A DNA stretch of 64,000 nt. Source: Phage NC-G. A program made the translations under genes and the position numbers. The DNA lies in the sequence record MK310184; one strand, written 5' to 3'. Of the stretch, positions 11,048 through 56,408 are shown one piece after another (position 1 is the stretch's first letter; the number at the start of each line of letters is the position of its first letter). The notes below the pieces were generated by a model. That model had not been told where the DNA came from and did no database searches. It was given only the letters and a program-made list of their open reading frames with translations.

Positions 11048-11371
11048 TCACTTATAAAGGCACGGAATAGCTTTATAGTGGCAGGTAACGAATTTCTGTT
11101 TAATTTCTTTAGGCTGTTTAATACCCAATGCAACTAAAGGATGAGGCACGTTAGCAATCTTACCAACAGGAAGTGGAGTCAAATCACCTACTTCACAAAA
11201 ACCTTCAGGGACATCAGGCCCTACAGAATAAATTTCACAAAGTTCAGGGATTTCACCTTGATGAAGTTTGCCAATAACGATACCAGATGCAGTAGTTTCT
11301 TCATCACCAGCTTGTTTTGGTTCGGAAACGAGAATAACATATTCTCCGACCGCTTTAATAGGAAGTTCCAT
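11048..11371 (-). CDS. 31: Co-chaperonin for GroEL (T4 gp31-like)
   Basis: [16 protein letters not shown]...PELC...[16 protein letters not shown]...[15 protein letters not shown] matches T4 gp31. Confidence 0.92.
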
Positions 11372-52094: not shown

Positions 52095-53912
52095 TTACGA
52101 CATCCAAGCCTTACGGAGTTGAGGGTCGTTTCCAAGGAGCATTTCGAACTGTTCTTTCCAATCTTCAGGCAATTGAACCACATCAAATTTAGGGTCTTGA
52201 ATCATTCGACGGTATTCGGCCTTCTCAAGAGAACCGAGCCCTTTAATATAACGAATAGAATGTTTAGGTAGAGAGTCCTTAGCTTTGGTATAACTAGGAA
52301 CGTCATAAAACCATTCTTGTTCTTTACCAATCTGAGCAATAATTACAGGAGTCTTACAGAAACGAATTCGTCCTTGTTCGAATAATTCAGGCCATTGGCT
52401 AAAGAAGGCTAATAACGAAGGATAAATCGAACCAGTACCATCCACATCGGCGTCAGTCATGATAGCAATATTACGATAGTTGGTTTTATCTGCAGGTTCA
52501 CCAATAACCAGTCCAGTGATTGCACAGATATCAAACAATTCTTTGTTCTTCATGATATCGGCAGCAGTCATACCCCAGGTATTCATAACCTTTCCGCGTA
52601 ACGGATAACCGCCTTGGAGGTCTTTATTACGAACTTCAATGAAAGGACCCATTGCAGAATCACCTTCCGTAAGGAACAAAGTCGTATCAGCATCTTTGCC
52701 ATACATATTGGCTTTAATATGCTTATGGACCTTGGCTTTCAAAGCTTTCTTAGCAGCTTTTGTTTCGGCGGCTTTTTCAGCAGCGAGTTTACGTGCTAAA
52801 GCTGCTTCGACAATAGGCATAATCAACCCATCAACTTTAAGAATAGCCGTTGCAATTTTCTTAGCATCAATTTGGATATGGTTACGAATCTCACCAAACG
52901 GAGAGGTTAATCGCTCTTTAGTCTGTGAATCAAAACGCATATTGCTCATATCACGAATGAACATTACCATCGTAAGGCATTCTTTAACACGAGCCTTAGT
53001 TACTTCGATTCCTTTATATTTCTTTTTAATACCGGGTAGAAGGTGCTCACAGATATCATCGAACACACATTCAACGTGGTGGCCGCCATTCTTAGTATGG
53101 ATATTGTTTACATACGTCAGTTGACGGAACCCGTCAGGAGAAGGAGTAAATGCCATCGAAACATTATCAGTTTCCTGGATTACAAAGTCTTCACCAAATT
53201 GCTTAGCATACTTTTTAAAGTTGCCATCTACTTTTTTACCATTAAAAGTAAATTGGATATCTGGATAAATTACAGCCAGTGTTTGAAGACGGTCTAGTGT
53301 AATATCCAGATAAATTTGAGACAGACTATTTTCTTCGAAATGGTTAAAGTCTGGGGTGAATATAACCGAAGTACCCTTACCTTTAGATTTCTTAGTAGAC
53401 CAACCTTTGTTTTCCATTCCATTGGAACAGTTAACAGTAATCTCATTCTCGCCATCAGAGGTGATGCCTGTGAACAAAACAGAGAAGATATTAGTTAAAC
53501 TACTACCAACACCGTTCATACCACCTGTCTTACGCTCAGCGTCATCTCCAAAGTTACCACCGGCCTTTGGAATAGTCCATGCAGCTACAGGACCTGGAAT
53601 CTGTTCACCGTTTTGGTCAGTAACCATTGCTTGAGGAATACCACGCCCATTATCAGAAACCGAAACCTGGTTATTCTTAATTTGAACATCAATTTTATTT
53701 GCGAATTTAAAATTGGTACGAATAGCTTCATCGACAGAGTTATCAATGATTTCGTCAATTAATTTAACCAGTCCAGGAACATAGTTCACCTGGGTAAAAT
53801 TACCAAACAGGAATCGACCGTGAGCTTCATTAGCACTGGAGCCAATATACATCCCACTACGTTTTTTGATATGTTCAATGTCGGACAGTACTTTAATTTC
53901 ATTCTTAATCAT
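52095..53912 (-). CDS. 39: DNA topoisomerase II large subunit (GyrB-like), single unsplit ORF
   Basis: 605 aa containing the ATPase domain and a C-terminal Toprim region (TEGDSA, TDADVDG) in one frame. Confidence 0.9.
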   Translation of the reverse strand: MIKNEIKVLSDIEHIKKRSGMYIGSSANEAHGRFLFGNFTQVNYVPGLVKLIDEIIDNSVDEAIRTNFKFANKIDVQIKNNQVSVSDNGRGIPQAMVTDQNGEQIPGPVAAWTIPKAGGNFGDDAERKTGGMNGVGSSLTNIFSVLFTGITSDGENEITVNCSNGMENKGWSTKKSKGKGTSVIFTPDFNHFEENSLSQIYLDITLDRLQTLAVIYPDIQFTFNGKKVDGNFKKYAKQFGEDFVIQETDNVSMAFTPSPDGFRQLTYVNNIHTKNGGHHVECVFDDICEHLLPGIKKKYKGIEVTKARVKECLTMVMFIRDMSNMRFDSQTKERLTSPFGEIRNHIQIDAKKIATAILKVDGLIMPIVEAALARKLAAEKAAETKAAKKALKAKVHKHIKANMYGKDADTTLFLTEGDSAMGPFIEVRNKDLQGGYPLRGKVMNTWGMTAADIMKNKELFDICAITGLVIGEPADKTNYRNIAIMTDADVDGTGSIYPSLLAFFSQWPELFEQGRIRFCKTPVIIAQIGKEQEWFYDVPSYTKAKDSLPKHSIRYIKGLGSLEKAEYRRMIQDPKFDVVQLPEDWKEQFEMLLGNDPQLRKAWMS

Positions 53913-53936
53913 GTTATTTCCTCATGTAGTAGGAGA

Positions 53937-53964
53937 ATATTATCCCATTTCACTTAAAGCATAA
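53937..53964 (-). promoter_or_regulatory. Candidate MotA-dependent middle promoter for gene 39
   Basis: Minus strand ttaTGCTTTA, 12 nt, TAATAT, directly after a hairpin. Confidence 0.5.
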
Positions 53965-53966
53965 AA

Positions 53967-53978
53967 GGGCCGAAGCCC
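53967..53978 (-). terminator. C(UUCG)G hairpin
   Basis: Minus strand gggc-uucg-gccc followed by TTTTAT. Confidence 0.5.
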
Positions 53979-54239
53979 TTAATCAAATCGAATAGTAGAC
54001 TTTTTAAAGAATAATCCAGAACAAACCGTTCCTTCAACCCTTTTACCTGTCGGCCCTACAGCAATAAAGCCTGTACGTTGGAAATCATCTTCAGAACAAC
54101 CGAATAGGTTATATCCTGTGATTTGGATTTGTTCGTAGCCATTTGCATCTAATACACGGGTAGCATTATCGGCATCAGTACAACCAACCAACGAAACTGC
54201 TAGTACAAGAGCTGCAATAGAACGATTAACATATTTCAT
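53979..54239 (-). CDS. Small lipoprotein (86 aa)
   Basis: Signal peptide ending in the lipobox LVGC. Confidence 0.55.
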   Translation of the reverse strand: MKYVNRSIAALVLAVSLVGCTDADNATRVLDANGYEQIQITGYNLFGCSEDDFQRTGFIAVGPTGKRVEGTVCSGLFFKKSTIRFD

Positions 54240-54245
54240 AATTTC

Positions 54246-54422
54246 TCACTTAGTTAGTAGGTCGTAAAACCCGCCGTTAACATGTTTAGGAGCCGAGACT
54301 AACCGAACAGCCAGCCGATGGCAATCAGGGCAAATATCATTATCTCTTTCAGAGATTTTCTTGATTTTTTCGTATTCTTTTGCACAGTCTTCAGATTGGC
54401 ATTTGTAATCATAAAGTGGCAT
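54246..54422 (-). CDS. FmdB-type zinc-ribbon protein (58 aa), absent from the ORF track
   Basis: Hand translation gives MPLYDYKCQSEDCAKEYEKIKKISERDNDICPDCHRLAVRLVSAPKHVNGGFYDLLTK; CxxC...CPxC with the MP.Y.Y.C start typical of that family. Confidence 0.55.
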   Translation of the reverse strand: MPLYDYKCQSEDCAKEYEKIKKISERDNDICPDCHRLAVRLVSAPKHVNGGFYDLLTK

Positions 54423-54428
54423 CTTCTA

Positions 54429-54800
54429 TTATTCCTTAAAGTGAGCTTTCAGCATCTGGTAAACTGTCCAGGCTTCAGAATTATTAGAGATAGTGATTTT
54501 AGTCAAAGGGAAATCACTCGGTTCCGATGGGCCCACGTCTTCGCATTCATCTTCAGTATCGTCATCTTTTTCTTCTTCAAAGAAACGACGCTCATCTTTC
54601 TTTATGAATAGGCTCGTAAATTCACCAGTTGATAATTCCATTTTATACACATCACCATCTTCAATTCTGACTGGTCTAAATCCCTCGCCATTGATTATAG
54701 TATTGGCTATATTATCATTATCTGTACATAGCAAACGGAATTTGCTTTCAGCATCATTATCTTTAAAATAATACCACTTATCAGTTTCAAATTTGGTCAT
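54429..54800 (-). CDS. Hypothetical protein (about 123 aa, start MTKFETDKWYY)
   Basis: ORF; the track start overlaps the upstream gene. Confidence 0.45.
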   Translation of the reverse strand: MTKFETDKWYYFKDNDAESKFRLLCTDNDNIANTIINGEGFRPVRIEDGDVYKMELSTGEFTSLFIKKDERRFFEEEKDDDTEDECEDVGPSEPSDFPLTKITISNNSEAWTVYQMLKAHFKE

Positions 54801-55011
54801 TATAAGTTTCCTTCCAGAAGTCGGTGCCTTCAGCAGTGATTTCACGGAACACTGCATAGATAGGATTTTTATCACCTTGATTTTTGTATACATAAACCGA
54901 CGATAAATGAGAAAATGTATCAGAATGTTCCTTTTGAACCACGATTAAATCAGGGTTGAACAGAACGTCTTCAAATTCTTCACGGGTCGAGTTCACGGTA
55001 ACTTTAGCCAT
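54787..55011 (-). CDS. Hypothetical protein (74 aa)
   Basis: ORF preceded by a promoter cassette. Confidence 0.5.
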   Translation of the reverse strand: MAKVTVNSTREEFEDVLFNPDLIVVQKEHSDTFSHLSSVYVYKNQGDKNPIYAVFREITAEGTDFWKETYNDQI

Positions 55012-55084
55012 TTTATTTTCCTCTCATTTGTTGATAGGGTAATCTTATCACTACCCTATATTGTTGTACACTACTTTTTAAACT

Positions 55085-55588
55085 TTATGCACGATGAATA
55101 TTGGCATACTCGACGATAAAGCTTTCAGGAACCACCTTAAAGGTTCCAAGGAACACGATGTTATAGAGCTTAACGCCTTCTTCAACCCACTGGTCAGTGA
55201 TGTACCCAGACATGCTAGTGGTTTCGTAAGTACCAAACTCTCCATCAATATATTCAAACGGTTTATGTGAAACGAAAAAGACGCCTTGACCTAATTTCCA
55301 TTTGAAATCAACACCAACATGAGACTGATCGATGGTTTCAACTTCTTCAACTACAGGAGCGACACATCCAGTAAATTCAGTTGATTCCAGGAATTTAGAA
55401 CGCACGTAGCCGAATTGTGTTTCCGTCTGGCCATTTTTAGGAATAATACGTACTTTTACTTCAGCGTTTTCAGGTCTGACACCTTCTTTAAGTTGAATAC
55501 TAACAACTTCAACTAAACGGCCTGCAGCTTTTGAACGAGATTGTTTGGATACGCGAACGATACCACCGATATCGGAAATAGTAATCAT
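55085..55588 (-). CDS. Hypothetical protein (167 aa; motB position) sharing a C-terminal module with its neighbour
   Basis: C-terminal ITDQWVEEGVKLYNIVFLGTFKVVPESFIV is paralogous to the end of the 248 aa neighbour. Confidence 0.5.
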   Translation of the reverse strand: MITISDIGGIVRVSKQSRSKAAGRLVEVVSIQLKEGVRPENAEVKVRIIPKNGQTETQFGYVRSKFLESTEFTGCVAPVVEEVETIDQSHVGVDFKWKLGQGVFFVSHKPFEYIDGEFGTYETTSMSGYITDQWVEEGVKLYNIVFLGTFKVVPESFIVEYANIHRA

Positions 55589-55661
55589 AATTTTTCTCTC
55601 TTGGTTAAAGGTTTATTCTCCATGAGAGCCATTATAACATGGCTCTCGATAAAGTAAACTA

Positions 55662-56408
55662 TTAGTTCAAAACATTCACAACTGCACTACGAGGTACTAC
55701 ACTAAAATCACCTGCATGGACTACGTTCAGGAGCTCGACACCATCTTCAATCCATTGGTCTGTTACCCACCCACAGATAGGATTATCAAAAGGACGACGG
55801 ACGCTTACTGGCTTACACAACAAATCGGACGGGTCTTGTTCTTCAACTTCTTGGAACAGGATTAACTCTGCTTCATAAACCAGGTTTTTCTCTACTTTGT
55901 TATTATCTAACCGGCGGCCGTGGATGACGTAAGATTTGGCAAACCAGTCACTTTTGGTAAATTCTTCAACAATAAATTCGCCTTCGCCAAAAACATCAGT
56001 CAGAGTTTTATGGCCGGAAATCAAGGCCTTAGTTTTAATTTCAGGTTCAACCAGTTTGTAGGTTTTGCCGATTTCAATAGTGGTAGTCATAGTAGGTTCC
56101 TTAATTTCCAGTGGTTTAACAGGGCATACATAAGTGCTTACAACATCAAAATCGATAAGCTGCTTTGGAGCTAAACGAATAAAGGCAGCCATTTCTCGTT
56201 GCGACAATCGAATAGTATGGATCCCGGGTCCGCCGCATTCTTGAACTGTTACAGATTTAATATTATCAAGCTCATCAGGTCCAATAGAAAGAATACGAAA
56301 TTCATTGCCTTTAGTCATCTTTTTAAGGATATCATAAGCTTGGTTGTAGAGCTTAAGTTCAGCGTACGGGGTAACGATGTATTTGGCATTCAGATCAAAA
56401 GTATTCAT
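55662..56408 (-). CDS. Hypothetical protein (248 aa) with the same C-terminal module
   Basis: C-terminal VTDQWIEDGVELLNVVHAGDFSVVPRSAVV. Confidence 0.5.
   Translation of the reverse strand: MNTFDLNAKYIVTPYAELKLYNQAYDILKKMTKGNEFRILSIGPDELDNIKSVTVQECGGPGIHTIRLSQREMAAFIRLAPKQLIDFDVVSTYVCPVKPLEIKEPTMTTTIEIGKTYKLVEPEIKTKALISGHKTLTDVFGEGEFIVEEFTKSDWFAKSYVIHGRRLDNNKVEKNLVYEAELILFQEVEEQDPSDLLCKPVSVRRPFDNPICGWVTDQWIEDGVELLNVVHAGDFSVVPRSAVVNVLN

Follow-up and report, generated by a model that had tools for sequence, protein, structure and literature searches.

The window, by which we mean the whole stretch of 64,000 nucleotides of Phage NC-G (MK310184) that was analysed, carries on its minus strand a cluster of tightly packed genes, motB, cef, goF, 39.2 and 39.1, followed by gene 39. 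The first gene of the cluster, motB (55085..55588, minus strand; 167 aa), was recognized by the Pfam motB model (E 1.6e-63), and the second, cef (54787..55011, minus strand; 74 aa), by the Pfam T4_Cef model (E 2e-33) as well as through the annotation of Escherichia phage JS10. The goF-like gene (54429..54800, minus strand; 123 aa), which matches phrog_622 and the goF PHROGs and is annotated in JS10 as 'goF mRNA metabolism modulator, putative', has its stop 6 nt before the start of gene 39.2 (54246..54422, minus strand). The latter, which we assign below to nwgI of phage T4, is an ORF of 58 codons with an ATG start and a TAA stop and encodes a zinc-ribbon protein. Gene 39.1 (53979..54239, minus strand), encoding a lipoprotein precursor of 86 aa, begins 6 nt downstream of the 39.2 stop, and downstream of 39.1 lies gene 39 (52095..53912, minus strand), encoding the topoisomerase II large subunit (605 aa). 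Gene 39 is a single ORF that unites the 39 and 60 parts; RB69 and RB49 have the same arrangement, whereas the T4 gene is split by the mobA/gene 60 insertion.

Organization of the transcription unit

Upstream of motB, a strong sigma-70-type promoter (55658..55631, minus strand; TTTACT, 16 nt, TGtTATAAT) was found in a promoter scan, with 10 of 12 matches and an extended -10. A perfect 9-bp inverted repeat (GAGAGCCAT / ATGGCTCTC) encloses the -10 hexamer, TATAAT, in its loop. At the other end of the cluster, a hairpin resembling an intrinsic terminator (53965..53980, minus strand; AAGGGCTTCGGCCCTT then TTTTAT) overlaps the stop codon of 39.1 and is the only terminator-like site in 53800-55800. 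Directly after this hairpin comes a middle-promoter-like site (53937..53963, minus strand), composed of a MotA box (TATGCTTTA; 53963..53955), a 12-nt spacer and the -10 element TAATAT (53942..53937); gene 39 itself has the ribosome-binding site GAGGA. The MotA-box consensus of T4 is (a/t)(a/t)(a/t)TGCTT(t/c)A, located 11-13 nt before TAnnnT, and the sequence at 53937..53963 fits a MotA-dependent middle promoter that would drive gene 39. No RNA family was found by Rfam in 53000-56000.

Considered together, the promoter, the tight packing, the hairpin and the middle-promoter-like site that follows suggest that 39.2 and 39.1 close an early transcription unit, which would run from motB through cef to 39.1. 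In such a unit, 39.2 would be expressed early along with goF and 39.1, from the motB/cef promoters, and the motB-cef-goF-39.2-39.1 transcripts would stop at the hairpin that precedes the putative gene 39 middle promoter. A sequence-only reading of the window had assigned the two small genes to the early region, and the early type of this unit is supported by the promoter scan and the surrounding sequence.

The 58-codon frame belongs to the FmdB/Zn_ribbon_8 family

The translation of 54246..54422 (minus strand) gives the 58-aa protein MPLYDYKCQSEDCAKEYEKIKKISERDNDICPDCHRLAVRLVSAPKHVNGGFYDLLTK. According to the sequence-only reading, this ORF had been missed by the 60-aa cut-off of its ORF track and encodes an FmdB-type zinc ribbon, and both points were borne out. 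The protein matched PF09723 (Zn_ribbon_8) with 43.3 bits (E 3.5e-11; curated cut-off, 34.4 bits) and the NCBIfam model TIGR02605 ('FmdB family zinc ribbon protein') with 44.8 bits (curated cut-off, 31.3 bits), and therefore lies above the curated cut-off of each family; it also matched phrog_1076. Homologues were detected by tblastn in 962 phage records. In comparisons of the window with JS10, T4 and RB69, dN/dS of the gene was 0.04-0.08 (dS 0.19 to ~2; dN 0.007-0.12), and gene 39.2 is thus under strong purifying selection.

These data bear directly on the possibility that the sequence between goF and 39.1 is non-coding or that the frame arose there by chance. Its length of only 58 codons and a modest Shine-Dalgarno match (AAGGA, 10 nt before the ATG) would be compatible with such an origin, but the family-model E-values of 1e-11, the low dN/dS in the face of saturated synonymous sites, the number of phage records carrying the gene and the existence of a T4 orthologue with a published protein and deletion phenotype (PMC5153855) leave it a negligible chance. 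The 58-codon ORF is a real gene and a member of the FmdB/Zn_ribbon_8 family. Two ORFs that overlap it, one of 37 aa (54299..54412, minus strand) and the other of 97 aa (54318..54611, plus strand), were rejected because the conservation pattern is accounted for by the 39.2 frame.

An alignment of 58 diverse homologues of 54-66 aa was used to examine the metal-binding pattern. Y4, Y6, C8, R26, C31 and C34 are invariant in all 58 proteins, and M1, P2, K22, I23, A44 and P45 are nearly so. At least four cysteines are present in 57 of the homologues, and the remaining one has three cysteines and a histidine; the fourth ligand is provided by a cysteine (in a C-x2-C or C-x4-C arrangement), by a histidine or by an extra cysteine after the second knuckle. 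The two knuckles and four ligands that characterize the FmdB family are thus found across the aligned homologues, and the zinc-ribbon pattern that the sequence-only reading had taken as the hallmark of the gene is conserved beyond the window. Its description of the individual cysteines was correct for the second knuckle, CPDC, but not for the first, which is C-x4-C (CQSEDC) instead of CxxC.

Residues 1-45 of the window protein match both family models, with the MPxYxYxC start and two Cys knuckles that are shared with the FmdB family. Apart from the C-x4-C first knuckle, the phage protein differs from this family in carrying a GGFYD tail in place of the typical bacterial tail, and the phage subgroup is shorter, at 54-66 aa, than most bacterial matches, at 80-110 aa.

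Orthology with T4 gene 39.2 (nwgI)

The region shares 96% DNA identity with Escherichia phage JS10 and 93-95% with JS98, IME08 and other Dhakavirus genomes, and the window phage is a Dhakavirus, that is, a JS98/JS10-like T4-type coliphage. In the JS10 record, the two ORFs between goF and 39 are named genes 39.2 and 39.1, and JS98, IME08 and numerous further records carry the same annotations. The gene is therefore not new, since it has an annotation in sister genomes and has been characterized in T4; the earlier description of it as unannotated held for the 60-aa track from which it was made, but not for the public records. A homologue of 39.2 is nevertheless present without annotation in Citrobacter phage IME-CF2 (excerpt positions 2001-2180), and likewise in OV877765.1, MW822011.1 and OQ223305.1. 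Since several deposited genomes lack the annotation, gene callers do often miss 39.2.

Window gp39.2 and T4 Gp39.2 (58 aa, as read from OZ035787.1) are 91% identical over their full length, as expected of members of one orthologous group, and 94.6% identical over 56 aa by tblastn. They share the same Cys ligands and the same C-terminal tail, SAPKHVNGGFYDLL, and the window protein differs from that of T4 by five substitutions (E11K, N28T, I30V, T57K and K58G relative to T4). Identity to the homologues of other phages is 83% for RB69 and 44% for RB43 and RB49. The order goF, 39.2, 39.1, 39 is the same in the window, T4 and JS10, such that the window gene and its T4 counterpart have the same neighbours, goF before and 39.1 after, and the same position upstream of gene 39. 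The gene also adjoins or lies close to gene 39 in RB69, RB43, RB49, phiR1-RT, IME-CF2 and a Klebsiella phage; its position beside gene 39 therefore extends over Tequatrovirus, Dhakavirus, Mosigvirus, Krischvirus, Pseudotevenvirus and Tegunavirus, in addition to the Klebsiella T4-like phage. In Vequintavirinae, the 39.2 homologue lies beside a MazG-like gene. Both in Cronobacter phage CR9 of this subfamily (excerpt 1639-2177) and in the Klebsiella T4-like phage (excerpt 1679-2177), the homologue comes directly after, and overlaps, a MazG-like pyrophosphatase gene and not goF.

The T4 records themselves disagree on the two small genes. In the reference record AF158101.6, 39.2 encodes 45 aa and 39.1 encodes 65 aa without a signal peptide (excerpt 2501-2942), and this is because of frameshift differences from the T4 assembly OZ035787.1, in which a 58-aa Gp39.2 is accompanied by an 86-aa lipoprotein with the lipobox LIGC, as in the window (excerpt 1501-1940). 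The size of Gp39.2 given in PMC5153855 agrees with 58 aa. The frameshift difference in AF158101.6 is the probable source of both the 'Uncharacterized 5.1 kDa protein' entries and the 45-aa protein in RefSeq.

The phage protein gp31 takes the place of GroES on GroEL and is required for folding of the capsid protein. An orthologue of gene 31, encoding this co-chaperonin (11048..11371, minus strand; 107 aa), was detected in the window by tblastn (83% identity, E 1.6e-57), with a T4 gp31 sequence as the probe. The GroEL-dependent capsid-folding pathway that is targeted by NwgI is therefore present in this phage. T4 39.2 was reportedly characterized by Ang and Georgopoulos (Genetics 190:989, 2012; PMID 22234860), who are said to have named its product NwgI, to have first picked up the gene from RB69, to have found the homologues of T4, RB43 and RB49 alike in behaviour, and to have observed that overproduction of Gp39.2 is lethal. 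In PMC5153855 and PMC4396842, two secondary accounts of this genetic and biochemical work, T4 Gp39.2 (NwgI) is described as a modulator of GroEL that suppresses the phenotypes of groEL/groES mutants and moves host GroEL towards an open state that binds GroES or gp31, and T4 with a deletion of 39.2 is described as unable to grow on certain groEL mutant hosts (PMC5153855). On the strength of the 91% identity and the identical gene context, we transferred this function to the window gene, and we attribute the same GroEL activity to its product with high confidence. The probability that the 58-codon gene is the Dhakavirus orthologue of T4 gene 39.2 (NwgI) and acts on host GroEL is, in our estimate, roughly 85%.

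A zinc ribbon followed by a conserved tail

The protein consists of a ribbon (residues 1-41), in which C8, C13, C31 and C34 are the predicted metal ligands, and a conserved tail of residues 42-58 (54246-54296, minus strand; SAPKHVNGGFYDLLTK) with the motif SAPxxVxGGFYD. An AF2 model placed four short beta strands within residues 3-41, with pLDDT ~85 for residues 1-40, and left the tail without secondary structure at pLDDT ~60; the model suggests that the tail is probably flexible. The product of gene 39.2 is very likely to be a cytoplasmic zinc ribbon with four ligands. The combination of a rigid ribbon with a conserved but floppy tail suggests the tail as a contact motif, and we infer that the ribbon serves as the scaffold and the tail as the contact surface.

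Zinc ribbons of this size could also bind RNA polymerase or a sigma factor early in infection and thereby regulate transcription. Such a role is implied by the PHROG/RefSeq label 'FmdB-like transcriptional regulator', would be in keeping with the clustering of 39.2 with motB, and was one of the roles favoured in the sequence-only reading; moreover, the sigma-A-binding proteins YdjO (E 0.23, prob 0.84) and RbpA are the best Foldseek matches of the gp39.2 model in the PDB. However, no Foldseek match was significant (all E > 0.2), and the matches, with Rpb12, aRF1 and MCM also among them, reflect the generic zinc-ribbon fold; in addition, neither YdjO nor RbpA was found when the gp39.2 family profile was searched against PDB sequences. 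That profile search yielded only motif-level matches, to arrays of C2H2 zinc fingers (YkCpeCgKxF) and to the zinc fingers of Fpg, and these were rejected as not homologous because repeats inflate the score. The database label, for its part, was taken from the name of the family, a name that implies regulation, and to our knowledge the founding FmdB protein has only ever been called a 'putative regulatory protein'. As applied to the NwgI group, the name 'FmdB-like transcriptional regulator' spreads through RefSeq without an experimental basis. The sole experimental data on this orthologous group point to GroEL (PMC5153855, PMC4396842). We therefore regard a transcription regulator as very unlikely and retain the assignment of gp39.2 to GroEL, beside which a second role is conceivable in view of the database label and the fold matches.

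The neighbouring lipoprotein gene 39.1

The sequence-only reading had noted an 86-aa lipoprotein gene with the lipobox LVGC directly after the zinc-ribbon ORF and upstream of gene 39, and this description is upheld by the homologues. The N-terminus of gp39.1, MKYVNRSIAALVLAVSLVGC, contains a signal peptide (residues 1-19; MKYVNRS-IAALVLAVSLVG-C20, lipobox LVGC) with the positive n-region, hydrophobic h-region and lipobox ([LVI][ASTVI][GAS]C) by which lipoprotein signals were recognized. Cys20 of the lipobox is invariant in all 29 aligned homologues, and position -1 is occupied by G, A or S in 28 of them; Cys48 and Cys73 are invariant in the same 29 proteins, as is the C-terminal GTVCSG..K.STIR. 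The mature protein is ~66 aa long and predicted to be acylated at Cys20. The residue at position +2 is Thr, and Asp never occurs there in the alignment. The Lol sorting rule of E. coli uses the +2 residue (Asp) of lipoproteins, and anchoring of gp39.1 in the outer membrane is therefore predicted; the protein is probably periplasm-facing, with one disulfide.

Gene 39.1 has a dN/dS of 0.02-0.12, and its product belongs to the family phrog_902. Members of the family occur in 1064 phage records, always annotated as 'hypothetical' or 'lipoprotein', and include those of T4-like phages of Escherichia, Klebsiella, Enterobacter, Serratia and Cronobacter, of the jumbo phages BcepSauron, AS-zj and KpSz_1, and of Stenotrophomonas phage YB07. 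A fold search yielded generic cystatin-like matches only, with a cystatin/PepSY-like fold being predicted, and a literature search on gp39.1 found nothing relevant. In RB69, RB43, RB49 and phiR1-RT, the place of 39.1 is empty or taken by a different gene. Since the distribution of 39.1 differs from that of 39.2, the two are neighbours rather than a functional pair, and gp39.1 is a widespread phage lipoprotein independent of 39.2.

Another reading, along the lines suggested by the sequence-only reading, takes gp39.2 as an anti-defence factor that neutralizes host immunity and gp39.1 as a superinfection-exclusion protein. Many small, early, non-essential genes in accessory regions of phage genomes have proved to be anti-defence genes, and 39.2 is small, early and non-essential and lies in a variable accessory region; its overproduced product is reportedly toxic. 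Similarly, gp39.1 resembles Llp of T5 and Cor of phi80/N15 in being a small lipoprotein that would be made early in infection, exported and probably anchored in the outer membrane. Nevertheless, gene 39.2 keeps its position and is strongly conserved in phages of different genera, not patchy like typical anti-defence genes, and gp39.1 showed no sequence or fold relationship to the exclusion lipoproteins Cor and Llp and no similarity to Imm or Sp, in line with the generic nature of its fold matches. Furthermore, the hosts of the phages in which gp39.1 is conserved span many genera, and these phages probably differ in the receptors they use, which speaks against a protein that blocks a single receptor. 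For 39.2, an alternative function is documented by the deletion phenotype on groEL mutants (PMC5153855). The combined reading of anti-defence factor and exclusion protein is accordingly extremely unlikely, and superinfection exclusion by gp39.1 is pure conjecture. The proposal of the sequence-only reading that the zinc ribbon is a regulator or an anti-defence factor thus gives way to modulation of GroEL/GroES, the activity of its 91%-identical T4 orthologue NwgI.

Discussion

By orthology with the T4 protein, gp39.2 of the window would act on the GroEL chaperonin of the host and tip it towards an open conformation to which GroES or gp31, the co-chaperonin of the phage, can bind. Where the GroEL of the host is suboptimal, gp39.2 would then help the major capsid protein to fold, a process that depends on GroEL and gp31, and gene 39.2 would be essential for growth on certain groEL mutant hosts but not on standard ones. 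NwgI would share its target, GroEL, with T4 gp31 and E. coli GroES, but has no sequence or fold relationship to either: gp31 and GroES form a heptameric beta-barrel lid, whereas NwgI is a zinc ribbon of monomer size that modulates GroEL and does not replace the co-chaperonin.

The conserved tail offers one conceivable route by which such modulation might occur. The mobile loop of GroES has the sequence KSAGGIVL, and in our own comparison the NwgI tail, SAPKHVNGGFYD, appears loosely similar to it. We may speculate that the tail, as a short linear motif, imitates the mobile loop of GroES/gp31 and docks in the groove of the GroEL apical domain, with the ribbon being only a stable handle, and that gp39.1, separately, represents a large phage lipoprotein family whose cystatin/PepSY-like fold could inhibit a host envelope enzyme; we consider this combined proposal unlikely. 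If true, mimicry by the tail would provide a structural mechanism for the shift of GroEL to the open state.

The identification of the gene has consequences for annotation as well. Its correct label would be 39.2/nwgI, for a GroEL modulator, and neither 'unannotated zinc ribbon' nor 'FmdB-like transcriptional regulator'. More generally, an ORF cut-off of 60 aa conceals known, functional phage genes, of which 39.2 is one.
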